Shown here: positions 2,170-48,786 of the stretch, in pieces
Layout: every line of letters starts with the position of its first letter
How positions within the stretch are numbered: the stretch's first letter is position 1
Assembly: GCA_000004695.1 (NCBI GenBank)
Contig: CM000153.2
Location: 5,312,001-5,376,000, forward strand
Length of the DNA stretch: 64,000 nucleotides
Direction: 5' to 3'
Origin: Dictyostelium discoideum
Lineage: Eukaryota
The notes under the pieces: model-generated
Told to the model about the DNA's origin: nothing
Databases searched by the model: none
What the model saw: the letters and a program-made list of their open reading frames with translations, nothing else
Translations under genes and position numbers: made by a program

Positions 2170-2214
<45 letters not shown>

Positions 2215-2800: not shown

Positions 2801-3240
2801 TTTATTTAAAAGTTTTTTATAAATTAATAAATTTCAATTGTTTTTATGCTTGTCTTTAATAAAAAAAAAAAAAAAAAAATTTCTGGTTAATTATGTTTAA
2901 AAATTTCTGTTTAATTATGTTTAAAAATATTTAAAGTTAATAAATTTCCATTAAAACAATTATTTTTAAAACAAAAATATACTACTAATTATTAATACTT
3001 TAAACTTCTATGGGGAGTTAATTTTTTTAAAAATTATTAATTATTACTTGTTTAAATATTAAATGATAACAGATGGAATGGTTTTTAATTTTTAAAATGT
3101 ACAAAATAATTAAAAACCAAAATAAGTAAATTTAATTTTCTGAATCTATTGGTAATATAAAGTTTTTTAAAAAATAAGTAATTATTAAACAAACGTTTCA
3201 AATATTTTTAAATTTTTAAATTTATATATTTATTTATTTA

Positions 3241-4431
3241 TCATTTATTATAATAATTATTTAGTGAGTTTATAAGCATTTCATTTGTAATTATATTTTC
3301 AATTGAATCAGATTTAGAACAATGATTTGATTCCGAAATTGATTTATTTGATAATAATAAAAGTTGTGAGAAAGAATTTTGATATCTTGTATATTCAATT
3401 TGAATTGGTAATAGCTTAATACAAGATTGGAAATTTGAAGATTGAATTAATGAAAACCATTCAATATATTCAACTTTTTCACAATTGAATTGTGATCCTA
3501 ATATATTATTAATATTCTCAATTTGTAATGGTTTTTCAACTCCAATATTGATAATATTAAAGCAACGATGTTGTTCTTGTATGTAGCTTTCAATATTAAT
3601 TAGACAATTTGAAATTGTTGTTGATAATGATGAAATTGGGGATGTTAAAAATGAGAATTCTATATTTGGATATGACTTGATTTCAATACATGATTGTAGA
3701 TATAATTGAACATAATCATTTGGATTTGAGAAAATTGAAGGGGTTCTTAATATAATTGTATTCAAATTGAATTTATCAGAAGCTTGTTTTAATAAATGTT
3801 CAGAGACTGCTTTAATTTGTAATGAACCATTTGAAAGTTGAGAAATTTTATCAACTGGTATTAAGGTTTCAAAATCTACAGTACTACTACTATTATTTCT
3901 ACCTAAATTAACATATAATGAAGATATCATTAAAATTTCTTTTATACCATTAGTGATTGAAAATTTAATAATTTCCTTTACAGTTTCGATTTTATATGAT
4001 TCATTTATATAGGTTGAATTTGTTGATTCTACTGCATCACTATCTTGATTAATAATTATTGAATTTACATTATTTGAAAGTATATTCAATTCATCAATTG
4101 GTAAACCAAAGTTATTCTTTGATGAATCACCAAAATAAACATGAATCTTTGAAATTTCAAATTCACTTAATTGTTCATAAAGTTTATATTGTTTAAAACT
4201 ATTTAAAATTTCATCATTTGAATTAATAGAATTAATTCTATCTTTTAATATATAATAAATATTTGAACAATTTGAATCTTTAACTAAATTAAATAATAAA
4301 TGAGTTCTTAAAATTCCAATTGAGCCAATTAATAAAATATTTTTGTTATTATTATCTAATTTTTGATGATGATTTTCATTGTTATTATTATTATTAATAT
4401 CTAATTTAATTTGATTCTCCCAAAATAGAAT
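3241..4431 (-). pseudogene. Detached 3' portion of the minus-strand PKS gene: C-terminal thioester-reductase (R, NAD-binding_4/SDR-type) release domain, separated from the ACP by a transposon insertion
   Basis: Reading frame open from 4431 to the stop at 3241; encodes ILFWENQIKLDINNNN..KNILLIGSIGILRTHLLFNL (TGxTGFLG-type Rossmann motif of terminal R domains). It joins in-frame to ...KYIAGGD at 7798 when the transposon plus one TSD copy is removed. Confidence 0.65.
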
Positions 4432-4436
4432 ATCAC

Positions 4437-4582
4437 TGTTGTAGGGAATTTTCCATAAAATTTCACTACAGTAGCGTAGTGAATTTTATTATTTAATTTC
4501 ACTACAGTAGCGTAGTGAAAAAAAAAAATCACTGACCTTAAATTTTTTTTTTTTTCAAAAAACAAATAAAGTTTATTAAATT
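4437..4582. repeat. Left terminal inverted repeat of the transposon (contains a twice-repeated near-palindromic TTCACTACAGTAGCGTAGTGAA motif)
   Basis: Reverse-complement match to 7652..7797 with only ~2 mismatches over 146 bp. Confidence 0.9.
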
Positions 4583-4639
4583 GAAATTTTATTTTTTGTT
4601 TTAATTATTATTTTATTTATTTTTATTATAATTATTGTT

Positions 4640-4672
<33 letters not shown>

Positions 4673-4813
4673 CAATTTTTTTTTTTTAAATTTTTTTCAA
4701 TTTTTATTTGTTTATTAAATTGTAATTTTATTTTTTGTTTTAATTATTATTTTATTTATTATTATTGTTAATTTTTTTTTTTTTTCAATTTTTTTTTTTT
4801 TAATTTATTTTTA

Positions 4814-6373
4814 TTAATTTATTTTTATTAACTCCCTGAGTTGTTCAATTGCTTGATTTACCATATCACTGTAAACACTGCACACAATTGAATTTTTTCT
4901 AGCTTTGTTACCTCTGGTGCATTTGATGTTTTTGCATTTTCCTTTGTATACAAAAAAGTCCAAATATAATTCGTTTTCTATTACAGTTTTTACACAATGT
5001 TGGTGAAATTGTTTTGATTTTAAGTGGAATGTTGGTAACATCATATTTGGATTTTTAACGATTAAAGCATCACCACTATTGACATATAGTACTTTGGGGG
5101 CTTTTTGGAGGAATTTAGTCAAATTTTCCTCTGAATCTAACTAATCTTCATTGCCATATTCAATGGATAAATTTTTTAAGAGTTGTATCGAATATATTAA
5201 TTAAGCGATCATTCTTTTTTTTTGAAATTTTTTTTTAATCAGATTTAGCAATTTTTTTTTTTTATCAAGTTTTTTCAATTTTTAATAAGTAATATTTTTT
5301 TTTATTTTTAATTATTTGTGTTAACAAATGTAATTTTTTTTTATTGATTTCAACACTTTGTTTTTATTTAATAATTTCCCCATACCCCCTTCTATTAATG
5401 CAACCAAATCAAGTTCTAATTTTTGTGTCCTTGTTGACTTTGTTTTTGCAACTTTTTTTGAAGGTATCACATTAACGATTTTTCCTATTGATGGTGATTT
5501 GGAAGGTGATTTAAATGGTGATTTAAATGGTGAATTGGAAGGTGATTTAAATGGTGAATTGGAAGGTGAAATGGATGGTGATTTGGAAGGTAATTTAAAT
5601 GGTGATTTGGAAGGTGATTTAAATGGTGATTTAAATGGTGAATTGGAAGGTGAAATGGATGTTGATTTGAGAGGTGATTTGGATGTTGATTTGAGAGGTG
5701 ATTTGGATGGTTTAGAATGTGATTTTAAAGGAGGTTTATTAACAATTGGTATCTTATGAGGACGGCCTCTGAGACGTTTAACAGTTGTTACTATACCACT
5801 ACCAGATTGTGGTATAGTATATGATGGTATTATTTGCACTTGAGGTATTGGTGGTACTATTTCTTTTAAATTCATATCCTTTCTCAAACAATTCATTAAA
5901 TTTGGCGCTGTTGGATTATTATTTAAAAATGGGAGTATTTCTTCTTGTTCCATTTCATTATTGAGTTTGTGTTGAAATGGATTATCGTTAATGATAGGTG
6001 GAATATTTGATGGATTGTTAAGAGCATCTTCCAAAACCCTAAATGGATCATTTTGTGTTACCAATTGATGCAAGTTGAAATTGGATAAATCCTTACCAAG
6101 ATTTTTAATAAACTGAACCAGAAATTCAATAACTTTCCCATCATTATTTAAATAAAGACCAGAAGTAAAAGAATCAATATCTTTTTGTATGTTTGGCGAT
6201 GTTCTAAAAATATCAACTGTTGATTGTTTATAAAGAACCAACTTGTTACCTCCTACAAAACCAGAGTATAAACCTTTTTTTTGAAGGCTATTGATTCCAT
6301 CTTCCAAAAATTCAAGTTTATAAAGTTGTTTAGTGTCTTCCTGTATTACCTTATGAATTTTACACAAAATCAA
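4814..6373 (-). CDS. Additional transposon-internal ORFs (350 aa with RGRP AT-hook and SPxK repeats; 102 aa Cys-rich)
   Basis: ORFs 5321..6373 and 4814..5122 lie on the same strand as the integrase fragments inside the TIR-bounded element; function unknown. Confidence 0.35.
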
Positions 6374-6443
6374 TATTTTCTATTAGAATTAAATATAAAA
6401 TTTGTTAATTATTACTGTTTCATATATTATTAATCTTTATGTT

Positions 6444-7287
6444 TTAATTACTTACATTATTTTTTTTAATTTCTAGAAAGAGTACAGTATCACCAACTTT
6501 CAATCCCTTTGGTGGTTTTGAATTCCATTGATTTTGGTAACTTGTGAGATTTTCAAGAATAATAGCTGTTATTTCTTCTTTTGAAACATCTGAAACACCA
6601 ATTGATTGAGAGTCTTGTTCTGATTGCACATTAATAAACAAAGGTACAATACCAACAGCTTGAGATGGTGTCATTTTAATTGTTCTTGTTTTTGTATTAT
6701 TGTAATCATACAAAGCTTGTTTTAATAGTTCAGAAAGAGACCTAGAAGTACCATCAAGAAAACTAAAATTTATTTATAAATGATTAATTAATAAACATAT
6801 CGATAATTTATATTGTTCAAAATATCATACTCTTGTTGTTTTAATTTTGAGATCCTCTCCTTGATAGTTCGATTCAATCTTTCTACCATACCTTGAGTTG
6901 TTGGTGTACGAGGAGCTCCATGTGCTGACTTGGAGCCTGGAAAAAGTTTTAGGAATTCTTTTTGGACTTTGTTTTTAAATTCACGTCCATTATCGCAGTG
7001 CCATACTTTCACAGAGTTTTAATATAAAAGTTACAAAACATCATATAAAAAATGATTGATACCAAACCTTTTATTCTATTTCGTTGGCAAATGTCACACG
7101 TATCTACTGCATCAGATACAAAAGAATACAATCCCATATTATAATATTTAGTCTTGTAGTTCCCATAGGTTGCATCTCTTCCTATATGACCTTTATGCAT
7201 TTCTTCCCAGAGTGATACCATTCTATAATCATTAATTACTTCTAAACACACTTCTTTTGATATATTTCTATCTCCGCCACAATTCAT
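6444..7287 (-). pseudogene. Transposon integrase-like ORF fragments (HHCC zinc finger, DDE core second Asp and Glu, C-terminal part) split over three frames
   Basis: 7287..7009 has HKGH...CDICQRN (HHCC). 7012..6788 has WHCDNGREF...HGAPRTPTTQGMVERLNRTIKE (second D and E of DD35E). No first catalytic Asp block is found between them, so the copy is probably deleted or degenerate. Confidence 0.7.
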
Positions 7288-7651
7288 GACTTTTTTTTCA
7301 ATTCTAAATAATTTTTCTTTTCTGTTTCTGTTTTTTATTGGTCAGAATTTAAAAAATGATTGTGTTATGGTAAGGAAAAATATTTACTCATCATGTAAAA
7401 ATTTATAATTTTTATGTTTAGTATTTTCAAAATTATTATCTTCAATAAATTTTAAATAATTTATCTTGTTTCATTTTGGGAAAATGAAAATAAAAAAAAA
7501 AAAAAAAAAAAAAAAAGTTTTGTTGGGGAAAAAAAAAAAAAATTTTGGCGCAAAAAAAAAAAAAAAAAATAAAATAAAAAAAAAAAAAAATAAAATAAAA
7601 AAAAAAAAATAAAAAAACTTAAATAGAACTAATAATCAAATAAAAGATAAT

Positions 7652-7797
7652 AATTTAATAAACTTTATTTGTTTTTTGAAAAAAAAAAAAATTTAGGGTC
7701 AGTGATTTTTTTTTTTCACTACGCTACTGTAGTGAAATTAAATAATAAAATTCACTACGCTACTGTAGTGAAATTTTATTGAAAATTCCCTACAACA
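7652..7797. repeat. Right terminal inverted repeat of the transposon
   Basis: Reverse complement of 4437..4582. Confidence 0.9.
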
Positions 7798-10700
7798 ATC
7801 ACCACCTGCAATATATTTATATTCAGTTTTATCATTTGGATCATTTTTTGTTGTTGTTGTTGTTTTTGCTGTTATTGGTAATAATTTTTCATCCATTTCT
7901 TTTTTCTTTTTATCTAATGAATCATTTATAATTTGATAAACCATACCAATTGAATTTGATTGAATTTGTTGAATTGTAATAAGATGTGGAGACCATTCTT
8001 TATCGACCCAATTCTTTAATTGTACTGTAATTAATGAATCAGCACCATAGTTTATCATTTTAATATTTGTATTAATTTTTGATGGATCAATTGAAAGAAG
8101 TTCAGAAACTTTGTTTAAAAATTTATTTTTTACATTTGTTGATGATGATGATTGATTGGTATCATTTTCCATTGATATTGAATTATCAACATTAATTGGA
8201 TTTAAAATGAAATCAAATTTTTGATGAAGTTTTTGTTTAAAACTTTTGAATAATGGCCAATTGAAATTATTAACAAATGCATTGGTTGGCATATTTGGAT
8301 TTTGAATTTGTAAATCTAAAGTACCCAATAATTGATTTGGTGATATTAATTCAACACCTTGACCACCTAGTACTGCTTCAACAAGTTTATGTCTTGAAAG
8401 ATAACCTCTATCACTTACACCACCAATGTTAATTGTAAATGATGGTAATCCAATTGATTTACGATATTGTGATAACGAATCCACTACACAACATGCTGAA
8501 ACATAACTACATTGATCAAATGAACCTAATACTGAAACTACTGATGATGCTAAAATGAAATTAATAATTTTCCAATCTCTTTTAATTGATAAATTATGTA
8601 AATTAACTGCACCAAACGTTTTTGCACTATGCGAAACATTTAAACTATTCATATCAATATCTTTAAGTTTTTTATTAATTTGTAAAGCTGCAAAATGAAA
8701 TATTGAATCAATATTTGTAATTGTTGGATTATCTTTTAAAACTTGATCAATTGTTTTATTAATTAAATTCCAATTACTAATATCACATTTTTTGAAATGA
8801 TATTTAATTTTATTGTTATTATTATTATTATTATTGTTGTTGTTATAATTCATTAAAAATTCTAATTCCCATTTTAATGATGATTTTGAAAGAATAATTA
8901 TATTTTCAACAGTTGAATTATATTTTGTTATCCATTTTAAAACTTCTAAAATTAAACCAGTTTGACCTGTAACCAATACATTTTTACCAAGATTTTTAAT
9001 TTTATAATCTGATTTTAATATTGAATAATCAATCATTGATTCTTTTTCAATTAATTTATCTATGATATCAGTATCATGTGAAATTACAATTTTACCAACA
9101 TGTTTTCTTTCTTTAATTGATTCAATTGATTTTTTAATATTTGAATTTGAAAATTCTGTAATTGGTATTAAAGCATTTAAAGTTTCATTTTCAATTGATT
9201 TTGAAATTGACTGTAATAATTTCTTAATTGTTGATTTTCCAACTTTTAAAATTTCAATACTATTATAACCAATATTATATCTATATCTACTATTATCAAT
9301 AAATTCATTTGGATTTAAATGAGTAGTTGTTAAATCTACAATTCTACCTTTTGGATTTAAACATTTAAAATTTGTATCCATAAATTCACTTGATAAAGTA
9401 TTAATAATTAAATCAACACCATGAGTTTCATAACCTAATTCAATTAATTTGTTTTTAATTTGTTTTTGATAATTTGTGTCTCTTGTTGAATAAATTCCAG
9501 TAATTAAATCACCATAGGTATTAATTAGATATTGTTTCTTTTCTTCTGATCCAACTGTAACAAATATTGGTGATGAATGATTATTTGATTTTAATATTTC
9601 CAATCCTGATAATCCAACACCACCAGATCCTGAATGAATTAATACTGATTCTTCATCTCTTAAATTACCAACATCATATAAACAATAAAGTGATGTTGAA
9701 TAAACTGCTGGAATTGAAGCTGCTTGAACATGTGTAATCTTTGATGGTTTATGACATGCTAATAATGAATCAATAATAATATGAGATGATGATGTTTCAT
9801 ATGCAATACCATAAACTTGATCACCAACTTTAAATTCTTTAGATGATTTAATTCCAACACGACTTACTACACCAGAAAAATCAAAACCAATACCAGCTTC
9901 ATTTACTTTTATCATTTCATTATATTTCAAATAATCTTTATAATTTATACCAGTTGCTTTAACTTTTACTTCAATTTCATATGGTTCTAAATCAATTTGT
10001 TTTGAATTTAATTGATATTCAAAATGTTCATCTAATTTTGAAACTAATTGATCTTGTTGTTTTGATAAATCATGATATGATTCAGATTTATAAGAATTCT
10101 TTAAATTTTTTAATTCTTTTTTATACATTTCAAAATAAACAGTACCACTATTTTTTATATAAAATTCTCTTTGAATATTATTTTTTGGATTAATTAAATA
10201 ATCAATGGTTTTGAATAAATCCAAATCATTTGTTAATGAATCTTTATCAAAATCCAATGTAAATAATTGTAAAGTTGGAATTTCATCAAAGTATCTTGCT
10301 GCACCTAAAACTGATGATGATAAATAATTACTTGATTGTGAATCACATGTAATTAAAACATGAGTACATTTTGATTTTAATTCATATAATTTTTGATTAA
10401 TTTGAACATATTCAAATGTTACTGATTTAAAGTTTTCCAATGTTAATTGTTCAATTGATTTAATAAAATAAATGATTGAATTATTTGTAATTGTTGTTGA
10501 TAATTTGTAAAATTCTTCAATTGTTGATACTTTTATTATTTTACAATTATTATAATGATTTTCAAATTTATTAATTAATTGTTGTTGTTGGAGTTGTTCA
10601 TCTTGATAACAATATAAAATTACTTGATCAAATGTGTTTATTGTTTTTGGTTGTAATTTTAATGATGGTTTTTGAGCTTGAATAATAATTGATTTAATAT

Positions 10701-10803
10701 CACTATCAGATATACTTGAAGATTTAATCATTATATCAGAATTGAAATTACAATTAACCAATAAGTTTTTCAATGATTCTTTATTATTTTCATTATTTAA
10801 TAG

Positions 10804-10868
<65 letters not shown>

Positions 10869-13800
10869 CATTTATTATTAAATAACCATTTGGTGTTAAA
10901 ATTTGATAAATTTGATTTAATGAATATTCAATATCTTTTGTTAAATTTGAAATATTTGAAACAATAATTAAATCATAATATGATGGATTTAATTTTTGTT
11001 TTTCTAATAATGAATTATCAACATCTAAACCTAATGAACGATAAAGAATACTTAAATAACCCTTATCTACTTTTGATAATTCTAATTTAGCATCTTTTAA
11101 AATTGATGAATTATTATCACTCCATGTATATTCAATATCAATTTCATAATGTGGATTTTCTTCGAGTAATGAATTGATTTCATTCAATAATAAAGTTGAT
11201 TTTGATAAATTATTACCACCAAATTCTAAAATTCTAAATTCCATCTTTCTATTAATTAATGGTTTAATAGTTTCTATAACAACATTTGGAATTAATAAAC
11301 CATCATCTACTTGATTATTTTGATAAATTGATTTAAATTCTAATGGTGATTGAATTTGTGAATCTTTTGATTGAAGATATGGTGTATAAATAAAATCAGA
11401 TGGAGTTTCAATTAATAATGGATCTTTAACTGGTGTTAATGATTTAACTACCAAGTTATCAACTTCAATGATAACAGTACCATCTTCTAACATAACAACG
11501 ATAGATGAAGAGAGTAAATCATCAGATGGAGATGATTTTAAAGTTGAATAAATAAAGATACTTGAATGTTCATCTCTATTTTTTGGAATATTTGAAGCAT
11601 AATATCTTAAACCTTCAACTTTATCTGTTACAATTTTACAATTCTTTTGAATGTATAGAATAACGGTACCATGGAAACAAGCATCAATGAGTGGACAATT
11701 GAAAAATGATTGTTCATCATGAAAGTTTTCAGGTAATTCTAAGGATATTTCAGTTAATGAACAATTATCACCAATATAACATTCAACTACTTTACTAAAA
11801 ATACCATAAAAGTTTGCACCCAATTGAGTTTTCATTAGTGAATAAAATTCATCCCATGGAATTGATGATAAATTACATTTTGTTTGTTTAATATCTTGAA
11901 TATCCAATTTTTGTTTTTCTTCATGATAATTATCATTACTATTTAAGTGGAAATTAGAATTTGAAGTATTTATCCATTGATTATTCATTTCATCTTTTAA
12001 ATGAAATTGTGCTCTATATTCACTTTTACCAGTTTGATAAACATTTGTTTGTAAACATTGCCCAATACCATCGGTTAATACAAATGGTACCTTAAATTCA
12101 ATTGAATTAATTGTTAAATCTTGATTTGGATATAATTTAAATATATTATCAATATAACCTGTTCCTGGGAAATAACATTTATCAGATACATTATGACCTT
12201 TTAAATATTTGAATGCATCTTTTCCAGTATCAATTATTGTTTGATATGATTTAATAAATGGATTTGAATCTTGCATTGAATTACCGAGAATTGAAATTGG
12301 TGGTCCAATTAAATTATTTTTATGTTCAATTGATTTATTTAACCAATAATGTTGATCATCCCATTGATATAATGGTAAATTAAAATTACTAATAGCCTCA
12401 ATATTGCTATTTATATTATTAAATTGACATTTAAAATTAATATCATAAGCATCATCACAAAATAATTGTGAAATTGATTTTTGAAATTCTTCAACATCAT
12501 TCTTTTTCTTGTGAAGTGTTGAATAAACTGATATTGATTCACCATTTCTAAAGTATTGTGATTGTTTTGGAATCATTTGTTTTAAATAAAATGATAATGT
12601 TGGATGTGGTGCAATTTCAATGAATACAATATTTGAACCGATTTGATTATCTTCAATATGTTTATATAAATTTGAAATTGTTTGAGTGAATGAAACTGGT
12701 TTTGAAATATTATCAAAGAAATATTCAGAATCAAAAATAGTTGATTCATTAAATAAATTTGATGTAACTGTTGAAAATGTTGGAATAACAGGTTGACTTG
12801 ATTGAATATTTAAATTTAAAATATCATCTTTAATTATATTTTGACTACTTGTATGAAAACTTGATAAACTTCCTAACATTGCTGAGAATATTTCTTTTTC
12901 TTTTAATTCTTTTGAAATTTCATTTAAAATTTGTTCATTACCTGCGATTACAATTGATGATGGTGAATTATAACATGCAATTTCAATAGTTGGGTAACGT
13001 GACATATAGTTAGTTTTATATTCATCTGAACTAATGTTAATTGATAACATTTTACCTGACCCATTTGTTCTTATTTGTAATGTTGATCTATGATAAATTA
13101 AATAACATAATTGGTCAATATCAATCATACCTGAACAATAAGCAGTTGTTACTTCACCAAGACTATGACCCAACATAAATGATGCTTTTATACCCCAATG
13201 TTTATAAAGTTCATATAATGATACTTGAATAATTACAGTTGATGGTTGTGCCATTGTTTGTTCATGAACTGAACATTTATCACTATCTTGAATTGCTCTT
13301 AATTTCTCTAAAATTGAATATCCAAAATAATTTTTCATTTTATTATCTAGCATATCCATCGAATTTCTAAATACTTTTTCATTTTTATATAATTCTAATG
13401 CCATTGTATTATATTGTGATCCTTGACCACAAAATACAAATACAGTTATTGGATTATTATTTTTATTTGTAATTGTAATATTTGAAGAAGTACTACTTGA
13501 AGTTTGATATTTAACTTGATTTTCAACATTATTAAAATCATTCCAATCTTTTGCAACAATTACTGATCTTTGATAAAGTGATGTTGATTTATTATAAATT
13601 TGATTTTTAACAAATTCTTCAAAACTATATTGTGATTCATATTCTTTATTTTCAATAATTAATGATTGATATTTTTTTAATGATTCAACTGAATTTGCTG
13701 AAAATGGAATTAAATAATTATTTATTTTTATATTATTATGATTATGATTATGATTATGATTATTATTATGATTATTTATATTATTATTTATAGTATTATA

Positions 13801-14489
13801 ATTAAATTGAGATAATACTAAACAACAATTTGAACCAGTTGCACCAAAATTATTAACAACCATTGAAGTATTTTTAAATTTATTAAATGGAATTGGTTCA
13901 GTTACAACTTTTAAATTCCATTCTTTAAATTTAATTGCTGGATTTGGTGTTTTAAAATGAATATTTGGTGCAAAACATTTGTTTTTATACATTAAACAAC
14001 ATTTGATTAATGAAGCAATACCAGAAGCAGCTTCACAATGACCAATATTTGATTTAAATGATCCAATTAATAATGGAGTATCAGTTGAACGAGTATCTTT
14101 AAAAACTTTTGAAATACCTTCAACTTCAATTGGATCACCAGTTGGTGTACCAGTGCCATGTGCTTCAACATAATCTATATCAGATGGTTTAACAGTTCCA
14201 TTGGTTGATTGAATTGCATTTTTTAAATTTTCAGATTGTGAAATTGATGATGGTGAATAGAAATTTGATTTATCAGAATAACCAATACCATCAACATTTG
14301 CACTTGCACCATTTATTGTACAATAAATTCTATTACCATCTTTAATTGCATCTTTTAAATTCTTTAAAACCACAACACCAATACATTCACTTCTTACATA
14401 ACCATCAGCTGATGCATCAAATGATTTACATCTACCATTTGATTTACTTAATATATTCAATGAAGAATATGCTTTAAAAAAGTAAGAGT
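7738..14489 (-). CDS. Type I iterative polyketide synthase, exon 2 (KS C-part, AT, DH, ER, KR, ACP); the reading frame now runs into the transposon TIR and stops at 7738
   Basis: Motifs GHSLGE (AT), HNVSDKCYFPG (DH), HSGSGGVG (ER), [10 protein letters not shown] (KR) and YGADSL (ACP). (CAA)26 poly-Gln tract at 10803..10867. The last 23 codons (DCCREFSIKFHYSSVVNFII*) are encoded by transposon TIR sequence. Confidence 0.85.
10803..10867 (-). repeat. (CAA)n microsatellite encoding a 26-Gln tract inside the minus-strand PKS
   Basis: (TTG)21 on the plus strand; the paralogous position in the plus-strand PKS reads NEQQPNNENNENNE. Confidence 0.9.
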
Positions 14490-14566
14490 CTAATAAAATT
14501 AAAAAATTTAATTAATAAATAAATATAAAGATAAAATTAAAAAAACTATTAAAAAAAAATACATAC

Positions 14567-15230
14567 CAAGTAATATATTAACACCACCAACAATTGACAT
14601 TTTTGATTTTTTATTTTTGATTGAATCATATCCTAATGCGATTGCATTTAAAGATGATGAACATGCAGTATCTAGAGTTATTGAATTACCATGAAGATCA
14701 TAACAATAGGAGATTCTATTTGAAATCGCATGATTTAAACTTGAGAATACATTTGATTTTACTTCATTTTTATTGATATTATGATAGTCACTTTCGGTAC
14801 AACCAATGAAAACCGAAGTATCTGTACCTTTGATTGAAATTGGATCAATTAATGAATCTTCTAATGCTTCCCATGTACATTTTAATAATAATCTTTGAAT
14901 TGGGTCAATGGTTGGTGCTTCATTTGGATTAATACCAAAAAAGAGTGGATCAAATGATTTAACTTCATCCAATGGTAATAGTCCTGAATAATTATTTGCA
15001 ATTTCATGATTTTTGAAAAAGTTATCATTGAATCTTTCTGATGTTTTCACTACACCATCGAAACCATTTATTAAATTATTCCATAATGTTTGAGGTGTAT
15101 TGTTTCTTTCATTTTCAATACTTCCACTTGGTAATCTAAAGCCAACACCAACAATTGCAACTAAATTTTCTTCAACATGTTTATCATCAACTTGTAAAAT
15201 TTCTGCTTTATTTATTTTATTTTGTTTCAT
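14567..15230 (-). CDS. Same PKS, exon 1 (KS N-terminus; ATG = complement of 15228..15230). Intron 14490..14566 (77 nt, GTATGT..AG, phase 1)
   Basis: [12 protein letters not shown]...[13 protein letters not shown]...[35 protein letters not shown] then GTATGT donor. Exon 2 resumes D-SYFFKAYSSLNILSKSNGRCKSFD, parallel to the plus-strand paralog. Confidence 0.75.
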
Positions 15231-15639
15231 TATTTTTTATAAATAAATTATTAATTAATTTTTATTTTAATTGAGTGAAGGCTTTTTAAATAATATAAAA
15301 TAAAATAAAATAAAAAGAAAAGCTACTATTTAATTTTAAAACCAAATACTCTTTTATTTTTATTTTTTTTTTTATTTTTTTTTTTTATAATAATATAGTA
15401 TAGTAATAATACAAACCTTGATCTTATCATAATTAATAATGATAACAAAAAAAAAAATTTTATAAAGATTGGAGATAATGGTTATTAATATTAATAGTTA
15501 AATAAAAAACACTATAAAAGGATCCTTTATTTTTTTAGATAATATGGTTGTGGGGTCGTAAAAAAAAAAAAAAAAAAATAAATTAATGAAAAATAAAAAA
15601 AAATAAAAATTAAGTATTTTTTCTATAACAATTTAATAA

Positions 15640-15702
<63 letters not shown>

Positions 15703-15780
15703 TGATTAATAGTTAAAATTACCTAAATTTAGATATCAATTACCTGTTAAATTATAAAATTCCTCGAACATCCATTATTT

Positions 15781-15837
<57 letters not shown>

Positions 15838-16049
15838 TTCCTATAAATATCTCATTATTTTTTTTTTTGATTAATAAATTGATTATATTTTAGTAATGTT
15901 TAAAATTTTAAATATTTTTTTTAAAAAAAAAAAAAAAAAAAAACAAAAATTATTCATCTTTTATTTAACAAATTTAAACATTTTAAATATTTTTTTAAAA
16001 AAAAAAAAAATTAATTTTTTTTGGATGGATTTAAAAAAAAATTTTAAAT

Positions 16050-16886
16050 TTAAAAATATTTTTTTTTTATTCTTAATAATGGAGTATTATTATTAATATT
16101 AATAATTCCATCAGTACCATTTTCATAAGAAATTTTAAAAATTCCATTTGTATAGTAATAGAAACCTTCGTCGAATTTTAAAAAAAATACAAGACCAGTT
16201 AATATATTTGAAAATTCTACGAAATAATTTGCAGAATATTTCAATTGACCAACTGAAATTGGATTTAAATTAAAAGAGAAAACATTTACAAAATCATTTA
16301 AAGAATTTGTTTTTTCTTGATATATTAAAACACCATTTTCAGTTTCACTTTCAATGATTCTATATATTTTTGTATTATTTGTTAATTTTGGAGATTGACC
16401 AATTTCATTGCCAATTTCAATTGGAAAATAACAAGATAGAAAAGTGAAACAAGCATCAACCAAGTATTTTTTATTCTTAAATTCCATTACATTGCAATAA
16501 TGAAGTCCGATATTTGGGTATACCAAATTCTCTCCACCGTCAATTGCTTTAATTAATTGAACTTTTATTCCAAATTCTTGTAATAACATACCAAATAATA
16601 TATTATGGTTTAAACAAATATTGCCAACCTCTTTCTCTATCATTGTTTCAACAATATAATCCATATCGATTGTTGGTCCATCTTTTAAAACGTCAATATT
16701 ATTATATGGAAAATGTTCTGCAAATTTCACCATTAACAATTCAAAATCATCCAAACAATTTAATTGAAAATCAATTTCTAAATTTAATTTTGGTAATATA
16801 ATTTCTTTAAAATTATATTTTTTATTTGCTAATTTTAATTCTTCATAACTGAAATGTAAAAAATAGTCTTTGTCATTAATTTCCAT
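16050..16886 (-). CDS. Arylamine N-acetyltransferase (NAT)-fold protein, 278 aa, in the spacer between the divergent PKS genes
   Basis: Catalytic-triad geometry matches NATs: Cys91 in VGNICLNHNILFG (cf. RGGYCFExN), His128 in GLHYCNV, Asp143 in YLVDACF (cf. YIVDAGFG). Cys-to-His spacing is 37 and His-to-Asp is 15, as in human and bacterial NATs. Confidence 0.65.
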   Translation of the reverse strand: MEINDKDYFLHFSYEELKLANKKYNFKEIILPKLNLEIDFQLNCLDDFELLMVKFAEHFPYNNIDVLKDGPTIDMDYIVETMIEKEVGNICLNHNILFGMLLQEFGIKVQLIKAIDGGENLVYPNIGLHYCNVMEFKNKKYLVDACFTFLSCYFPIEIGNEIGQSPKLTNNTKIYRIIESETENGVLIYQEKTNSLNDFVNVFSFNLNPISVGQLKYSANYFVEFSNILTGLVFFLKFDEGFYYYTNGIFKISYENGTDGIININNNTPLLRIKKKYF

Positions 16887-16896
16887 TTTTTTTATT

Positions 16897-16932
<36 letters not shown>

Positions 16933-17079
16933 CAAAGTATTGTTTATTTTAAATGAAATTATAATTAAATATAAAAATTAGAGGAATTAAATATATTTTA
17001 AGGGTATAATTTAATTTTTTAAAAATTAATTTATAAAAATTAATAATTTTTATAATAATACCCAAAATTATCTGTTGAT

Positions 17080-17121
<42 letters not shown>

Positions 17122-17407
17122 AACGAAAATCCCAAATTATTTATAAAAATGGTGTGTCATTGTTCGTGGATTCAGGACCCAAAAAATAAAATAATAAAAA
17201 AACAATTCAAGTTCCCATTGAGGAACTTGTTCTTAAATGGGTAATTTTTGAGAAAACTTTATTATTTTTATCAGATAATAGATATAATTTATCTTTTAAT
17301 TACTTTAATACCATTAAATTATTAATAATTTAAAAAAATAATATTATTTATTATTTCCTACACAATTTTAAAAATTAAAAAAACAATTATAAAAAAAAAA
17401 TTTTAAA

Positions 17408-17488
17408 AATAAAGAAGTGAGATTAATATTTTTCCACAACTTGGAATTCTAAAACCAATACAAATGTGCATTATCTCACTTCTTTATT
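17408..17488. repeat. 16-bp perfect inverted repeat (AATAAAGAAGTGAGAT ... ATCTCACTTCTTTATT) with 48-nt spacer
   Basis: Read directly; located in the divergent PKS intergenic region. Confidence 0.8.
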
Positions 17489-18550
17489 TTTAAAATTTTT
17501 TTTTTATATTTGCCATACCTTAATAATCTATTATTTTTTTTCATTTTCACAATTTTAATTAATTAAGCTATTTAATTTATCATTCATTTTTAAATTTTAA
17601 TTTTAATTAAACAAAATTTTTTTTTTTATTTTTAAAAATTTATTTTTGTTATTAGTATTTGTTTATAAATGATCTTTTTTTTTTAAAAAAATTAATTTAA
17701 ATCTTTGAATCTGTGTCTATTAATTTATTTTTATTTTTTTTTTTTTTTATAAAAAAAAAAAAATTTGATGTGCAAATCGGGTTAAAAAAAAAAAAAAAAA
17801 AAACAAATGGATTTGTTCTATCTAAATAGGGTTAATAGAAAAAAAATTTAGGTTTTCAAAAAAAAAAAGTTCTGTATTTGTTATTGTGGTAACTTTTTTT
17901 TTATAATTTTTCATTTTTTTTTTTTTTTCCATTCATTTACATTTTTAACACCACACCAAAAGTTTAAATATATACAAAGGTTTTTTTGAAATGTGGTGTA
18001 TTGTTGTGAGATTCAATGGTTAAGTGGATATTAAATTTTAATTTTAAAAAATTTTTAATAACCTAATAGTAATCAATAACTCAAATTTTAGAAAAAAAAA
18101 AGAAAAGTAGTATCAATAAAGTGGAAGAAAAAAAAAAAAAATTTTAAACCACCAATTTATAATTTCATATAAAAAATTATTAATGCTTAGTAAAAGAATA
18201 CAAAATTTTTTTGCTTCCCATTGAAACTTTCACTAGATAATCCAGTGATTTTTTTAACATGTAATCTAACACTTTAAAAGAGTAAAAATTATGTAAGCAA
18301 TACTATAAACACGTGATACAATTTATTTATTTATTATTAATAATAAGAAACAAACCACACCAAAATTTTTATTAATATAAGAAAAAACCACACCAAAATT
18401 TTTAAAGATAATATTAAAATATAATTTACTAATTTATATTAATATATTATTATTTTTTAAAAAAAAAAAAAAATAAAAATTGATTTAAAAACAAATTTTA
18501 TATATTTTTGATTTTATATATTTATCAAACCAATAAAACAATTTTTAATA

Positions 18551-19238
18551 ATGGATAATAGTTATTTAAATAATCCCCAATTTGATATTAATAATGGTAA
18601 TAAAGAAGTTACAGATGATGATAATAATAAAAATAATCAAGATAATTTAGTAGCAATTGTTGGTGTTGGTTTTAGATTACCAAGTGGTGAAAATGAAAGA
18701 AATAATACACCTCAAGCATTATGGAATAATTTAATAAATGGTTTCGATGGTGTAGTGAAAACATCGGAAAGATTCAATGATAACTTTTTCAAAAATCATG
18801 AAATAGCAAATAACTATTCAGGACTATTACCATTGGATGAAGTTAAATCATTTGATCCACTCTTTTTTGGTATTACTCCTAATGAAGCACAAACTATAGA
18901 TCCTCATCAAAGATTATTATTAAAATGTACATGGGAAGCATTAGAAGATTCATTAATTGATCCAATATCAATCAAAGGTACTGATACTTCTGTTTTCATT
19001 GGCTCTTCAACAAATGATTATCTTACATTAAATAGAAATGAAGTAAAATCAAATGTGTTTGGTAGTATGGCTCATTCAATTGCAAATAGAGTATCCTATT
19101 GTTATGATCTTCATGGTAATTCAATAACTCTAGATACTGCATGTTCATCATCTTTAAATGCAATCGCATTAGGATATGATTCAATCAAAAATAAAAAATC
19201 AAAAATGTCAATTGTTGGTGGTGTTAATATATTACTTG
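18551..19238 (+). CDS. Type I iterative PKS (plus strand), exon 1; intron 19239..19324 (GTATGT..AG, phase 1)
   Basis: [10 protein letters not shown]...[20 protein letters not shown]...GGVNILL then GTATGT donor; paralogous to minus-strand exon 1. Confidence 0.8.
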
Positions 19239-19324
19239 GTATGTATTATTTTTAAAATTTTTTATTATATTTTATTTTTTACAAAATTATTAATTAAAAT
19301 TATATTATTATTTTTTTTTAAAAG

Positions 19325-22300
19325 ACCCATATCCATATAAGGCATTCTCAATTTTGAATATGTTAAGTAAATCAAATGGTAGATGTAAATCATTTGATGC
19401 ATCAGCTGATGGATTTGTTAGAGGTGAATGTATTGGTGTTGTTATTTTAAAGAATTTAAAAGATGCAATTAAAGATGGTAATAGAATTTATTGTACAATA
19501 AATGGTGCAAGTGCAAATGTTGATGGTATTGGTTATTCTGATAAATCAAATTTCTATTCACCATCATCAATTTCACAATCTGAAAATTTAAAAAATGCAA
19601 TTCAATCAACCAATGGAACTGTTAAACCATCTGATATAGATTATGTTGAAGCACATGGCACTGGTACACCAAATGGTGATCCTGTAGAAACCGAAGGTAT
19701 ATCAAAAGTTTTTAAAGATACTCGTTCAACTGATACTCCATTATTAATTGGATCATTTAAATCAAATATTGGTCATTGTGAAGCTGCTTCTGGTATTGCT
19801 TCATTAATCAAATGTTGTTTAATGTATAAAAATAAATGTTTTGCACCAAATATTCATTTTAAAACACCAAATCCAGCAATTAAATTTAAAGAATGGAATT
19901 TAAAAGTTGTAACTGAACCAATTCCATTTAATGAAAATAAAAATACTTCAATGATTATTAATAACTTTGGTGTTACTGGTTCAAATTGTTGTTTAGTATT
20001 ATCTCAATTTAATAATACAAATAAACAAAAACAACAAATGAAAACAAAAATAAATAATTATTTAATTCCATTTTCAGCAAATTCAGTTGAATCATTAAAA
20101 AAATATCAATCATTAATTATAAATAGTAAAGAAAATGAATTAAAATATAGTTTTGAAGAATTTGTTAAAAACCAAGTATTTATTAAACCAACATCACTTT
20201 ATCAAAGATCTGTAATTGTTGCAAAAGATTGGAATGATTTTAATAATGTTGAAAATCAAGTTAAATATCAAACTTCAAGTAGTACTTCTTCAAATATTAC
20301 AATTACAAATAAAAATAATAATCCAATAACTGTATTTGTATTTTGTGGTCAAGGATCACAATATAATACAATGGCATTAGAATTATATAAAAATGAAAAA
20401 GTATTTAGAAATTCGATGGATATGCTAGATAATAAAATGAAAAATTATTTTGGATATTCAATTTTAGAGAAATTAAGAGCAATTCAAGATAGTGATAAAC
20501 GTTCAGTTCATGAACAAACAATGGCACAACCATCAACTGTAATTATTCAAGTATCATTATATGAACTTTATAAACATTGGGGTATAAAAGCATCATTTAT
20601 GTTGGGTCATAGTCTTGGTGAAGTAACAACTGCTTATTGTTCAGGTATGATTGATATTGACCAATTATGTTATTTAATTTATCATAGATCAACATTACAA
20701 ATAAGAACAAATGGGTTAGGTAAAATGTTATCAATTAACATTAGTTCAGATGAATATAAAACTAACTATATGTCACGTTATCCAACCATTGAAATTGCAT
20801 GTTATAATTCACCATCATCAATTGTAATCGCAGGTAATGAACAAATTTTAAATGAAATTTCAAAAGAATTAAAAGAAAAAGAAATTTTCTCAGCAATGTT
20901 AGGAAGTTTATCAAGTTTTCATACAAGTAGTCAAAATATAATTAAAGATGATATTTTAAATTTAAATATCCAATCAAGTCAACCTGTTATTCCAACATTT
21001 TCAACAGTTACATCAAATTTATTTAATGAATCAACTATTTTTGATTCTGAATATTTCTTTGATAATATTTCAAAACCAGTTTCATTCACTCAAACAATTT
21101 CAAATTTATATAAACATATTGAAGATAATCAAATCGGTTCAAATATTGTATTCATTGAAATTGCACCACATCCAACATTATCATTTTATTTAAAACAAAT
21201 GATTCCAAAACAATCACAATACTTTAGAAATGGTGAATCAATATCAGTTTATTCAACACTTCATAAGAAAAAGAATGATGTTGAAGAATTTCAAAAATCA
21301 ATTTCACAATTATTTTGTGATGATGCTTATGATATTAATTTTAAATGTCAATTTAATAATATAAATAGCAATATTGAGGCTATTAGTAATTTTAATTTAC
21401 CATTATATCAATGGGATGATCAACATTATTGGTTAAATAAATCAATTGAACATAAAAATAATTTAATTGGACCACCAATTTCAATTCTCGGTAATTCAAT
21501 GCAAGATTCAAATCCATTTATTAAATCATATCAAACAATAATTGATACTGGAAAAGATGCATTCAAATATTTAAAAGGTCATAATGTATCTGATAAATGT
21601 TATTTCCCAGGTGCAGGTTATATTGATAATCTTTTAAAATTATATCCAAATCAAGATTTAACAATTAATTCAATTGAATTTAAAACACCTTTAATATTAT
21701 CAGATGATAATGGTCAATTTTTACAAACAAATGTTTATCAAACTGGTAAAAGTGATTATAGAGCTCAATTTCATTTTAAAGATAATAGAACAAATGTATG
21801 GGTTCAAACATGTACTGCTAATTTTCAATTATATAATAATGGTAAAGTTGATAAATTAAATTTAGAAGAAATTAAATCAACAAAATGTAATTTATCATCA
21901 ATACCATGGGATAAATTTTATCCACATATAAAAAATAGAACTGGTTTAAACTATAAAGACAAATTTCAAAATACAATTGAATGCTATCTTGGTGATAATT
22001 GTTCATTAACTGAAATATCATTAGAATTACCAGAAAACTTTCATGATCAAGAATCATTTTTTAATACACCAATTTTAGATATTTGCTTCCATGGTTCAAT
22101 TGTTTTAATTAAGGATAATTGTAAACTTGTTTTGGATAAAATTGATGGTTTTAAATTATATACATCAAACATTCCAAAAAATAGATTTGATCATTTAAGT
22201 ATTTTTGTATATACAACTATGAAATCAACAAAATCAAATTCATACAATTCAACATACACAGTAATGTTAGAAGATGGTACTGTTATACTTGAAGTTGAAA

Positions 22301-25300
22301 ATTTAATATGTACATCATTAACACCAGTTAAAGATCCATTATTAATTGAAATTCCAACTGATATGTATTATACTCCATATCTTCAATCAAAAGATTCACA
22401 AATTCAATCACCATTAGAATTTAAATCAATTTATCAAAACAATCAAGATAATGATAGCTTATTAATTCCAAATGTTGTTTTAGAAACAATTAAACCATTA
22501 ATTAATGAGCAAATGGAATTTAGAATTTTAGAATTTGGTGGTAATAATTTATCAAATTCAACTTTATTATTGAATTCAATCAATTCATTACTTGAAGAAA
22601 ATCCACATTATGAAATTGATATTGAATATACATGGAGTGATAATAATTCATCAATTTTAAAAGATGCTAAATTAGAATTATCAAAAGTAGATAAAGGTTA
22701 TTTAAGTATTCTTTATCGTTCATTAGGTTTAGATGTTGATAATTCATTATTAGAAAAACAAAAATTAAATCCATCATATTATGATTTAATTATTGTTTCA
22801 AATATTTCAAATTTAACAAAAGATATTAAATATTCATTAAATCAAATTTATCAAATTTTAACACCAAATGGTAATTTAATAATAAATGAACAACAACCAA
22901 ACAATGAAAATAATGAAAATAATGAAGATTCATTGAAAAACTTATTGGTTAATTGTAATTTCAATTCTGATATAATGATGAAATCTTCAAGTGTATCTGA
23001 TAGTGATATTAAATCAATTATTATTCAAGCTCAAAAACCATCATTAAAATTACAACCAAAAACAATAAACACTTTTGATCAAGTCATTTTATATTGTAAT
23101 CAAGATGAACAATTCCAACAACAACAACAATTAATTAATAAATTTGAAAGTCATTATAATAATAATTGTAAAATAATAAAAGTATCAACAATTGAAGAAT
23201 TTTATAAATTATCAACAACAATTACAAATAATTCAATCATTTATTTTATAAAATCAATTGAACAATTAACATTGGAAAACTTTAAATCAATAACATTTGA
23301 ATATGTTCAAATTAATCAAAAATTATATGAATTTAAATCAAAATGTACTCACGTTTTAATTACATATGATTCTCAATCAAGTAATTATTTATCATCATCA
23401 ATTTTAGGTGCAGCAAGATACTTTGATGAAATTCCAACTTTACAATTATTTACATTTGATTTTGATAAAGATTCATTAATTAATTTAGACATTTCGGTTA
23501 TAGATCATTTGATAGATCCAAAACAAAATACATTGATTGAATTCTTTATTAAAAAAAATGGTAAAGTTTATTTTGAAAGATTTAAAAAAGGTTTAAAGAA
23601 AAATTCTTTTAAATCAGAATCATATCATCAAATTACAAATGAACAAGAAATTTTAATTTCAAAATTAGATGAAAATTTAGATTATCAATTAAAATCAAAA
23701 GATTCAATTTTAAAACCATATGATATTGAAGTAGAAATTAAAGCAACTGGTTTAAATTATAAAGATTATTTAGTATATAGTGGTTTAATAAAATTAAAAG
23801 GTGATAGTGTTGATTTTGGTCTTGATTTTTCTGGTAGAGTTAGTCGTGTTGGAATTAAATCATCAAAAGAATTTAAAGTTGGTGATGAAGTTTATGGTAT
23901 TGGACAATCAACATCATCATCTCATATTATTATTGATTCAATGCATGCATGTCATAAACCATCAAAGATTACACATGTTCAAGCAGCTTCAATTCCAGCA
24001 GTTTATGCAACTTCAATTCATTCTTTATATAATATTGGTAATTTAAGAGAAGGAGAATCAATTTTAATTCATTCAGGATCTGGTGGTGTTGGATTATCAG
24101 CATTGGAAATATTAAAATCAAATAATCATTCATCTCCAATATTTGTTACAGTTGGATCAGAAGAAAAGAAACAATATCTAATTAATACCTATGGTAATTT
24201 AATCACTGGAATTTATTCAACAAGAGATACAAATTATCAAAAACAAATTAAAAACAAATTAATTGAATTAGGTTATGAAACTCATGGTGTTGATTTAATT
24301 ATTAATACTTTATCAAGTGAATTTATGGATAGCAATTTCAAATGTTTAAATCCAGAAGGTAGAATTGTAGATTTAACAATTACTCATTTAAATCCAAATG
24401 AATTTATTGATAATAATAAATTTAAATATAATTTTGGTTATCATAATATTGAATTATATTATTGTGAAAAGCCAACAATTAAGAAACTATTACAGTCAAT
24501 TTCAAAATCAATTGAAAATAATACATTAAATTATTTAATTCCAATTACAGAATTTTCAAATTCAAATATTAAAAAAGCAATTGAATACATTAATGAACGT
24601 AAACATGTTGGAAAAATTGTAATTTCTCATGATACAGATATTACTAATAAATTAATTGAAAATCAACCTAAAATTGATTACTCTTTATTGAAATCAAATT
24701 ATAAAATTAAAAATCTTGGTAAAAATGTATTGGTTACAGGTCAAACTGGTCTAATTTTAGATATTATAAATTGGATTATGAAATATAATTCAACTGTTGA
24801 AAATATAATTATTCTTTCAAAATCATCAATGAAATGGGAAATGGAATTTTTAATTAACAACAATAAGACAAAAATTAAATTCTATTATAAAAGATGTGAT
24901 ATTGGTGGTGATTCAGATTCAATTAATAAAACATTTGATAAATTGTTTACAGAAAATCCAACAATTACAAACATTGATTCAATATTCCATTTTGCAGTTG
25001 TACAAATTACAAGAAAAGTAAAAGATATTGATATGAAATCATTAAATATTTCACATGATGCAAAAACAATTGGTGCAATTAATTTACATAATCAATCAAT
25101 TAAAAGAGATTGGAAATTAAGTAATTTCATATTAGCATCTTCAATTCTTTCAAAAGTTGGTTCATTAGATCAATGTGGATATGTTTCAGCATGTTGTGTA
25201 CTTGACTCATTTTCAAAATATCGTTTATCTATTGGATTACCTGCATTATCAATTAATATTGGTGCTATGGGTGGAAGTGGAATGGTTGCAAGAAGTGAAC

Positions 25301-25779
25301 TTGTTGAAACTGTACTTAATGGTCAAGGTTATAATTTAACCTCAACAAACCAACTATTAGGTACAATTGATTTATTAATTCAAAATCCTGGTCAAGAATC
25401 AAATAATTTAATGGTTGGTAATTTTAATTTCCCAGTTTTTAATAATTTCAAACAAAAGATTCATCAAAAATTTGATTTTATTTTTAATGCTCTTGATTCA
25501 AACTCTGAAAATGGTGATGGTAGTAATATCAAAAATTCAACAAATATTAAAGATAAATTTTTAAACAAAGTATCAGAATTTCTTTCAATTGATTCATCTA
25601 AAATTAATAATGATATTAAATTAATGAATTATGGTGCTGATTCATTAATTACTGTTCAATTAAAGAATTGGGTTGATAAAGAATGGTCTCCAAATTTAAT
25701 TACAATTCATCAAATTCAATCAAATTCAATTGGTATGGTTTGTCAAATTATAAATGATAATTTTGAAAAAAAAAAATAA
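19325..25779 (+). CDS. Type I iterative PKS (plus strand), exon 2: KS-AT-DH-ER-KR-ACP, ending 26 residues after the ACP with no release domain (total 2380 aa)
   Basis: Same motif order as the minus-strand PKS. Ends ...LMNYGADSLITVQLKNWVDKEWSPNLITIHQIQSNSIGMVCQIINDNFEKKK*. Confidence 0.85.

Positions 25780-48251: not shown

Positions 48252-48316
<65 letters not shown>

Positions 48317-48712: not shown

Positions 48713-48786
<74 letters not shown>

Follow-up and report, generated by a model that had tools for sequence, protein, structure and literature searches.

A NAT-fold acyltransferase gene between the divergent polyketide synthase genes pks24 and pks25 of Dictyostelium discoideum and its possible role in their pathway

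In Dictyostelium discoideum AX4, the genes pks24 and pks25 for two iterative polyketide synthases (PKSs) are transcribed divergently, and NAT4, a gene annotated as an arylamine N-acetyltransferase (NAT), is situated between their start codons. This arrangement raises the question whether NAT4 takes part in the pathway of the two PKSs or is located there by accident and, if it takes part, which acyl transfer it performs. The question was addressed in a window of 64,000 nucleotides of AX4 DNA (GCA_000004695.1, contig CM000153.2, positions 5,312,001 to 5,376,000 of the forward strand; G+C content about 20%), to which all coordinates refer unless stated otherwise. A preliminary description of the window had proposed that NAT4 releases polyketide chains in trans from two PKSs devoid of a release domain, an interpretation which is partly supported by the results given below. 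Our reading is that NAT4 has been kept in the pks24/pks25 cluster of the D. discoideum species complex and may perform one acyl-transfer step on the cluster metabolite; with a probability of roughly 0.45, this reading falls somewhat short of even odds.

Family, fold and active site of NAT4

The gene in question and its catalytic codons are located as follows.

16050-16886, minus strand: NAT4 coding sequence (DDB_G0287121), 278 amino acids, intronless, assigned by open reading frame (ORF) and exact match to the AX4 protein
16614-16616, minus strand: codon of Cys91
16500-16502, minus strand: codon of His129
16455-16457, minus strand: codon of Asp144

The translation is identical to AX4 DDB_G0287121/UniProt Q54KU4, 'Arylamine N-acetyltransferase 4', a name derived from the third-party annotation CBL43359.1. 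The ORF is no new gene and corresponds to the one already annotated as (DICDI)NAT4. In a 2024 survey of NATs it was stated that NAT4 'could reside in a BGC' (biosynthetic gene cluster), and a function was not proposed (PMC11213898).

NAT4 matches Pfam family PF00797 over residues 45-278 of 278 with 67.3 bits (gathering cut-off 22.8; E = 2e-18). An AlphaFold2 model, built from an alignment of 79 homologues, reached a pLDDT of 90.4 and a pTM of 0.91. In a Foldseek comparison of this model with the PDB, the best 40 matches all belong to the NAT family, after which the E-value jumps to 9e-3; the top match is NAT1 of Mesorhizobium loti (E = 1e-15, template modelling (TM) score 0.74-0.77). The NAT-fold enzyme suspected at this position is thereby confirmed. 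In alignment, Cys91, His129 and Asp144 coincide with the catalytic triad of M. loti NAT1, and among the 79 homologues Cys91 and His129 are invariant and Asp144 is nearly so. The proposed triad of canonical type with Cys91 thus stands, but its other two members had each been numbered one too low, as His128 and Asp143. Judged by the model, NAT4 is a genuine NAT-fold Cys-His-Asp acyltransferase and is predicted to be catalytically competent.

With canonical NATs (M. loti NAT1, 4nv7/2bsz; Salmonella NAT, 1e2t; human NAT1/NAT2) NAT4 shares the PF00797 domain, the three-domain fold, the Cys-His-Asp spacing of 38 and 15 residues and, by prediction, the interdomain helix. It differs from them by a sequence identity of 16-19%, by an N-terminal extension of about 25 residues which is common to the dictyostelid paralogues, by its setting in a PKS cluster and by two altered motifs. 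The semi-conserved NAT motifs RGGYC and VDVGFG are replaced by VGNIC and VDACFTF in seven of seven NAT4 orthologues. Since these motifs are only semi-conserved, their loss leaves the NAT membership of the protein standing. The second replacement affects the P-loop, where NAT4 has D144-A-C-F-T-F in place of the usual D-V-G-F-G. As a result, the glycines of the coenzyme A (CoA) P-loop are gone in all seven orthologues, whereas the paralogues NAT5 and NAT6 retain G-x-G. This loss suggests altered donor binding. For ansamycin amide synthases it has been argued from a non-canonical P-loop that they use a donor other than CoA, and GdmF bound pantetheine and N-acetylcysteamine (SNAC) but not acetyl-CoA (PMC11903869). 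Where GdmF possesses a disordered interdomain lid, a helix is predicted in NAT4 (residues 212-229).

An exhaustive hidden Markov model (HMM) search with NAT4 over 1.84 billion representative proteins yielded only 10 proteins at E < 1e-10. Besides the representative of the NAT4 orthologues, these are exclusively dictyostelid and comprise NAT6 and NAT5 with their D. dimigraforme/D. citrinum orthologues, other paralogues from D. dimigraforme and D. cf. discoideum, three proteins of D. purpureum and one of P. violaceum. The nearest relatives are NAT6 (DDB_G0277549; E = 3e-52) and NAT5 (E = 3e-44). All paralogues were obtained from this search; a word-index search with NAT4 alone returned orthologues only, and with a mixed profile bacterial NATs dominated. 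Sequence comparison hence identifies NAT4 as a strongly divergent member of a dictyostelid NAT expansion and not as a relative of RifF.

Between species NAT4 is under purifying selection, as indicated by a dN/dS of 0.07-0.14 at a dS of 0.64-0.81 (D. discoideum, D. citrinum and D. dimigraforme).

The 3' end of the AX4 allele is aberrant. Its last approximately 40 codons (16050-16170) are unlike those of all other strains and species and contain several clustered non-synonymous changes, and the stop codon lies 13 codons early compared with every other strain and species. Relative to an otherwise 99.5%-identical strain, dN (0.013) exceeds dS (0.003). Either a reference-sequence error in an A/T-rich stretch or incipient gene decay in the AX4 lineage could account for this.

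The pks24/pks25 cluster and the interrupted end of pks24

NAT4 is surrounded by the following features.

7738-15230, minus strand: pks24 (DDB_G0287119) as truncated in AX4; intron 14490-14566; ACP at residues 2332-2423; from splicing and Pfam
15231-16049, no strand: intergenic region from the NAT4 stop codon to the pks24 ATG
16887-18550, no strand: divergent intergenic/promoter region shared by NAT4 and pks25, ATG to ATG
18551-25779, plus strand: pks25 (DDB_G0287095), 2380 amino acids; intron 19239-19324; ACP at residues 2297-2380
4437-7797, no strand: DNA transposon with terminal inverted repeats (TIRs), 3361 bp; repeats 4437-4705 and 7529-7797; Pfam integrase matches
3241-4436, minus strand: orphaned reductase-like (NAD_binding_4) domain of pks24; Pfam PF07993, 63.7 bits

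After removal of one intron each, pks24 of AX4 encodes 2471 and pks25 2380 amino acids, both with the Pfam domain order KS-AT-DH-cMT-ER-KR-ACP. NAT4 is the sole ORF of at least 100 amino acids between the two start codons, in agreement with its description as the only enzyme gene between the PKSs. Neither tRNA genes nor Rfam families were found between the two PKSs, and a hidden RNA gene at this place was accordingly rejected. NAT4 is co-directional with pks24, 820 bp upstream of the pks24 ATG, and divergent from pks25, with 1664 bp between their ATGs. Its position between the PKSs is therefore as described, but it is located between the divergent 5' ends, i.e. among the promoters, and not between the ACP ends.

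The plus-strand gene pks25 terminates inside the ACP profile (residues 2297-2380), so that the ACP is its last domain, as had been noted. A release domain of pks25 was found neither in AX4 nor in another D. discoideum strain, D. citrinum, D. dimigraforme and D. cf. discoideum. An architecture that stops at the ACP is commonplace among D. discoideum PKSs: in a structural survey of 40 D. discoideum PKSs, 21 carry an off-loading domain after the ACP (two of chalcone-synthase type, the rest probably thioester reductases) and 19 end at the ACP (PMC12828403).

The minus-strand gene pks24 likewise ends after its ACP in AX4, and here the earlier explanation by a transposon is borne out. The element has imperfect TIRs of 269 nt, which start with TGTTGTAGGG and have the termini TGTTGTAGGGAATTTTC, contains fragments of integrase-type ORFs (H2C2 zinc domain, rve core) and is flanked by the 5-bp target duplication ATCAC. 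It presumably resembles Tdd-4/DDT-A. Within pks24, the element separates the ACP from the reductase-like domain. Up to ...YIAGGD the AX4 protein matches its orthologues, then it enters the transposon and terminates in a short unrelated tail; in keeping with this, the alignment to the D. citrinum orthologue ends at position 7798. In D. discoideum GCA_054883475.1 the insertion site is empty and both flanks are 99.5-100% identical to AX4, and D. citrinum and D. dimigraforme likewise lack the insertion. The undisrupted pks24 of these three genomes encodes 2803-2848 amino acids with a C-terminal NAD_binding_4 domain. In AX4 the corresponding segment (3241-4436, minus strand) is free of stop codons and 80% identical to the D. 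citrinum PKS tail, demonstrating that the domain itself is intact. The assumption that both PKSs natively lack a release domain was consequently rejected; the location of NAT4 between two release-less PKSs holds for pks25 and for pks24 of AX4, but not for the undisrupted pks24.

The orphaned domain aligns to the terminal reductase of MxaA (4u7w). In this single pairwise alignment a Ser occupies the position of the catalytic Tyr ('NGSLQIK' versus 'GGYAQSK' in MxaA), and the Rossmann motif is degenerate ('IGSIGILR'). The domains of D. citrinum and D. dimigraforme show the same Ser and the same degenerate Rossmann residues. The C-terminal domain of pks24 may thus be no true reductase but possibly a non-redox, cyclising release domain of R* type.

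In the undisrupted strain, pks25 is transcribed in one direction and NAT4, pks24, three UPF0523 genes, cyp513B1 (encoding a cytochrome P450, P450) and an epimerase/short-chain dehydrogenase/reductase (SDR) gene follow each other in the other, all co-directional. The order of pks25, NAT4 and pks24 is identical in D. discoideum, D. citrinum and D. dimigraforme and in several strains. Moreover, D. cf. discoideum GCA_054859235.1 possesses, in addition to a standard NAT4 (ACTFIZ_011431), a second NAT4-like gene, which is 85% identical, keeps the triad and has a dN/dS of 0.29 versus D. discoideum. This copy is divergent to a pks25 copy (the pair at 1852-10858 of locus L015) which is 90-97% identical to AX4 pks25, and neither pks24 nor the reductase-like domain was found within 10 kb. 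The presence of the NAT4-pks25 pair at a second locus without pks24 implies that the pair moved, or was kept, as a unit. The second copy also has a deletion of six amino acids within the interdomain helix.

The genes downstream of pks24 extend beyond the window start, where the third UPF0523 gene, cyp513B1 and the SDR/epimerase gene are located, all co-directional.

2330-2800, minus strand: UPF0523 protein C (DDB_G0287093), 156 amino acids, first of three tandem paralogues downstream of pks24
1189-1680, minus strand: UPF0523 paralogue, DDB_G0287091 by gene order, 163 amino acids
Beyond the window start (locus L011, 12430-12918), co-directional: third UPF0523 paralogue (DDB_G0287089)

The three UPF0523 proteins (156-163 amino acids) gave no match to Pfam. 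An AlphaFold2 model of protein C (pLDDT 82) displays an NTF2/SnoaL-like fold, for which Foldseek lists AtoB, NsrQ/Dcr3, the meroterpenoid isomerases AusH/PrhC/Trt14, TerC, SdnG and SnoaL2 as best matches. The predicted fold is hence closest to isomerases, cyclases and aldolases of polyketide and meroterpenoid pathways. Homologues of UPF0523 were found only in the D. discoideum/citrinum complex.

Expression data connect these genes. In RNA-seq lists of AX4 filter development (eight supplementary files of PMC4403905; false discovery rate <= 0.01 within 1-4 h windows), the entries given for UP_Hr20_gradual contain DDB_G0287119, 287095, 287093, 287091, 287089 and 287087 in six consecutive positions, and those for UP_Hr18_rapid include DDB_G0287093, 287091, 287089 and 287087. 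According to these lists, pks24, pks25, UPF0523 A-C and cyp513B1 are co-induced at 18-20 h. In the portion of an AX2 proteome table considered here, Pks24, Pks25 and Cyp513B1 are quantified only at the last, fruiting-body stage (PMC12821622). In addition, pks24 and pks25 single knockouts and the double knockout lose the same candidate metabolite features, whose annotations are polyprenylated cyclic polyketide and chlorinated polyaromatic amine (PMC12625978). The two PKS genes, the three NTF2/SnoaL-like genes and the P450 gene form a real, co-regulated cluster of late development.

Candidate acyl transfers and competing explanations

As in other members of the family, catalysis by NAT4 would follow a ping-pong course: a thioester donor would acylate Cys91, activated by His129 and Asp144, and the acyl group would then pass from Cys91 to an amine or hydroxyl acceptor. 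The donor could be an acyl-CoA, in which case NAT4 would be engaged in ordinary tailoring. Alternatively, it could be the pantetheine-bound chain on the release-less Pks25, which would be off-loaded onto a Pks24-derived core or an amine. This second option follows the logic of lovastatin biosynthesis, where LovF (KS-AT-DH-MT-ER-KR-ACP) has no release domain and the discrete acyltransferase LovD esterifies the LovF chain onto the product of the other PKS. Both systems comprise two highly reducing iterative PKSs, one of them release-less. The parallel is hypothetical, and LovD differs from NAT4 in having an esterase/beta-lactamase-like fold and a Ser nucleophile.

Precedents with the fold of NAT4 exist in bacteria, where the NAT homologues RifF/GdmF and AsuC2/ColC2 form amides with polyketide chains (PMC11213898). 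RifF, GdmF and Asm9 share with NAT4 the NAT fold, genes adjacent to PKSs and a non-canonical P-loop, and their catalytic Cys is acylated by a polyketide thioester (PMC11903869, PMC11213898). In contrast to NAT4, they are encoded downstream of modular PKSs together with 3-amino-5-hydroxybenzoic acid (AHBA) genes and cyclise an aniline-terminated seco-acid, whereas the neighbours of NAT4 are iterative highly reducing PKSs, and genes of AHBA type, for arylamine precursors or for aminotransferases were not found near it. Membership of NAT4 in the RifF type was rejected on these grounds: its relatives are dictyostelid, AHBA genes are lacking, and canonical NATs match better than GdmF, in sequence (M. 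loti NAT1, E = 0.003; GdmF, E = 0.05) as well as in structure (TMq 0.74-0.76 versus 0.65 for GdmF).

If NAT4 forms amides, the best functional analogy would be AsuC2, ColC2 and PtmC of the manumycin-family and platensimycin pathways, NAT homologues which join a long polyketide or terpenoid acyl chain to an arylamine intermolecularly. These enzymes are bacterial and their own clusters supply the arylamine (3,4-AHBA, ADHBA), in contrast to the surroundings of NAT4, where none was seen; the sequence similarity is marginal (E = 0.37). A NAT-family arylamine N-acyltransferase of Streptomyces aureus with bound acyl-SNAC (8k51/8k56) superimposes on the NAT4 model with a TMq of 0.67-0.70. A eukaryotic clustered NAT with a non-acetyl donor is the N-malonyltransferase NAT1 (FDB2) of Fusarium verticillioides (7qi3; TMq 0.69 to the NAT4 model). 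It is a larger protein from a detoxification cluster without a PKS and uses a CoA donor.

Off-loading of the Pks25 ACP by NAT4 itself, in the manner of LovF/LovD or AsuC2/ColC2, is the attractive version of a role in the cluster, although we regard it as improbable. It would make NAT4 the first eukaryotic NAT-fold enzyme to off-load an iterative PKS, with the Pks25 chain passing to Cys91 and from there into an amide or ester with the Pks24 core or an amine, an outcome that we likewise hold to be unlikely. Stated more broadly, NAT4 would be a trans-acting release enzyme which accepts the chain from the ACP of Pks25, and in AX4 also from that of the truncated Pks24, and delivers it from Cys91 by amide formation, ester formation or hydrolysis. 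Such a function would agree with the absence of a release domain from pks25 in every genome examined, with the NAT4-pks25 pair kept without pks24 at the second locus and with the loss of the P-loop glycines in all orthologues; that GdmF binds and cleaves pantetheine and SNAC thioesters at its Cys and that structure 8k56 holds an acyl-SNAC also fits. Since both single PKS knockouts lose the same features, two chains must, furthermore, be joined somewhere. However, an undisrupted pks24 comes with a reductase-like off-loading domain of its own, and the authors of the GdmF study favour CoA or pantetheine esters over ACP-bound substrates (PMC11903869). Moreover, off-loading domains are missing from 19 of the 40 D. 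discoideum PKSs (PMC12828403), and for none of the others among these has a NAT neighbour been reported, so that a missing thioesterase does not call for a NAT. Considering in addition the expression data described next, release in trans is rather unlikely.

In the entries of the eight expression files, NAT4 (DDB_G0287121) appears in no differential-expression list (PMC4403905), and in the accession-sorted AX2 table XP_637425 (Pks24) is followed directly by XP_637427 (Pks25), NAT4 (XP_637426) not being listed in this part (PMC12821622); these negatives are subject to list thresholds and detection limits and to the detectability of a small protein, and they derive from lists without raw values. 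A full-text literature search for gene-level expression of DDB_G0287121 yielded nothing. On the whole, the expression data at hand lean away from co-regulation of NAT4 with the PKSs; with six cluster genes up at 18-20 h and NAT4 in none of the lists considered, the stage of expression, named beforehand as a possible refutation, leans against a release function. Short Logan contigs containing NAT4 and UPF0523 were rejected as evidence of transcription, since they include intergenic DNA and were judged to be genomic assemblies. NAT5 (DDB_G0276993) is listed in UP_Hr11_gradual (PMC4403905, supplementary file 7), among the entries covered; at least one dictyostelid NAT is accordingly developmentally regulated, with a timing different from that of the PKS cluster.

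Besides these two expression results, several observations weigh against a role of NAT4 in the pathway. No amine-forming enzyme was seen among the cluster genes, and the NAT4 model superimposes better on xenobiotic NATs (TM 0.74-0.77) than on GdmF (0.65). No PKS was found within 10 kb of NAT5 or of two D. purpureum homologues, a comparison in which NAT5 is the closest paralogue with an examined locus. The conserved synteny is expected anyway among species this close, and by a rough estimate (some 40 PKS genes in a total of about 12,300, with six or more NAT paralogues) the chance of a NAT-PKS adjacency is about 4%, which is low but not negligible. Finally, the published work on pks24 and pks25 makes no mention of NAT4 (PMC12625978).

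Accordingly, NAT4 might be an ordinary N-acetyltransferase of xenobiotics or endogenous amines, trapped by the inverted duplication of pks24 and pks25 and devoid of a function in the pathway. Its absence from the considered lists in which other cluster genes are co-induced would be accounted for, as would its canonical NAT fold and the ordinary neighbourhood of its relatives (the nearest are NAT6 and NAT5; the genes around NAT5 and around the two D. purpureum homologues are unremarkable). The clustered non-synonymous changes and the early stop codon of AX4 could reflect relaxed constraint, or else reference errors. This explanation is opposed by the strong purifying selection between species and by the retention of NAT4 beside pks25 at the second locus. 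In addition, NAT4 heads a co-directional array of cluster genes, and a simple acetyl-CoA enzyme would not be expected to show the conserved, clade-specific loss of the CoA P-loop glycines. We consider an accidental neighbourhood doubtful, though it deserves serious attention.

As a further possibility, NAT4 could shuttle an acyl chain from the ACP of Pks25 to the KS or ACP of Pks24 as a starter, its triad acting like the Cys-His dyad of fungal SAT (starter-unit:ACP transacylase) domains. The two PKSs seem to serve a single pathway, a SAT-like domain is missing from both, and NAT chemistry, from thioester via Cys to a nucleophile, would be compatible. However, to our knowledge no NAT transfers to a thiol acceptor, and the expression results speak against this shuttle in the same way, which renders it very improbable indeed.

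Intergenic regions, flanks and significance of the cluster

A check for promoter elements shared with the PKS genes had been suggested, and none could be demonstrated. By k-mer footprinting in AX4, D. citrinum and D. dimigraforme no conserved element was detected in the NAT4/pks25 intergenic region; only one GC-containing block, AAGATTGGAGAT, is shared by the three species, and it lies near 15465 in the NAT4-pks24 intergenic region upstream of pks24. Upstream of pks25, CCACACCAAAA occurs in three exact copies within 450 bp (17951, 18355 and 18388) and in no further exact copy elsewhere in the 64 kb; with one mismatch allowed, 4 were observed versus 1.2 expected. This triplet is confined to the pks25-proximal side and does not occur in the pks24 promoter. 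It possibly represents a candidate CA-rich/G-box regulatory element. Boxes of GGTGTGG type are also found in the corresponding D. citrinum region.

In the same intergenic region, positions 17384-17512 form a near-perfect hairpin of 129 nt with 40-nt arms (98% complementary; RNA fold -44.7 kcal/mol), which is present in both D. discoideum strains, not at the loci of D. citrinum, D. dimigraforme and D. cf. discoideum, and without a match in Rfam. Within pks24, the cMT region (approximately 10900-11000) encodes a run of 22 glutamines (…INEQQQQQQ…LLNNENN), for which pks25 shows no counterpart at the homologous position.

On the pks25 side, no biosynthetic genes follow; the products encoded there are an FNIP-repeat protein, a histidine phosphatase, proteins of large size without Pfam domains, V-ATPase subunit A and PheRS. 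At a distance of about 22 kb from pks25, a 596-residue ORF (47561-49351, plus strand) shows a weak KR match (E = 1e-6, below the per-stretch threshold) and could represent part of a PKS or else a divergent SDR.

The AX4 reference contains a split pks24 and an aberrant 3' end of NAT4, and work on this cluster should hence check the allele of the laboratory strain. Of the approximately 40 iterative PKSs of D. discoideum, very few have an assigned product. The pair pks24/pks25 is under active study by knockouts and metabolomics (PMC12625978), in which the NAT gene in the promoter gap has not been considered. Should NAT4 be unrelated to the pathway, it would be an ordinary annotated paralogue. If, on the other hand, NAT4 joins or releases chains, the bacterial theme of NATs as amide synthases and acyltransferases would extend to eukaryotes. 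Such a function would be of use in predicting a product that contains nitrogen or is acylated, would explain why the same features are lost in both single knockouts, and would provide one concrete answer to the question how products are released from Dictyostelium PKSs that end at the ACP.

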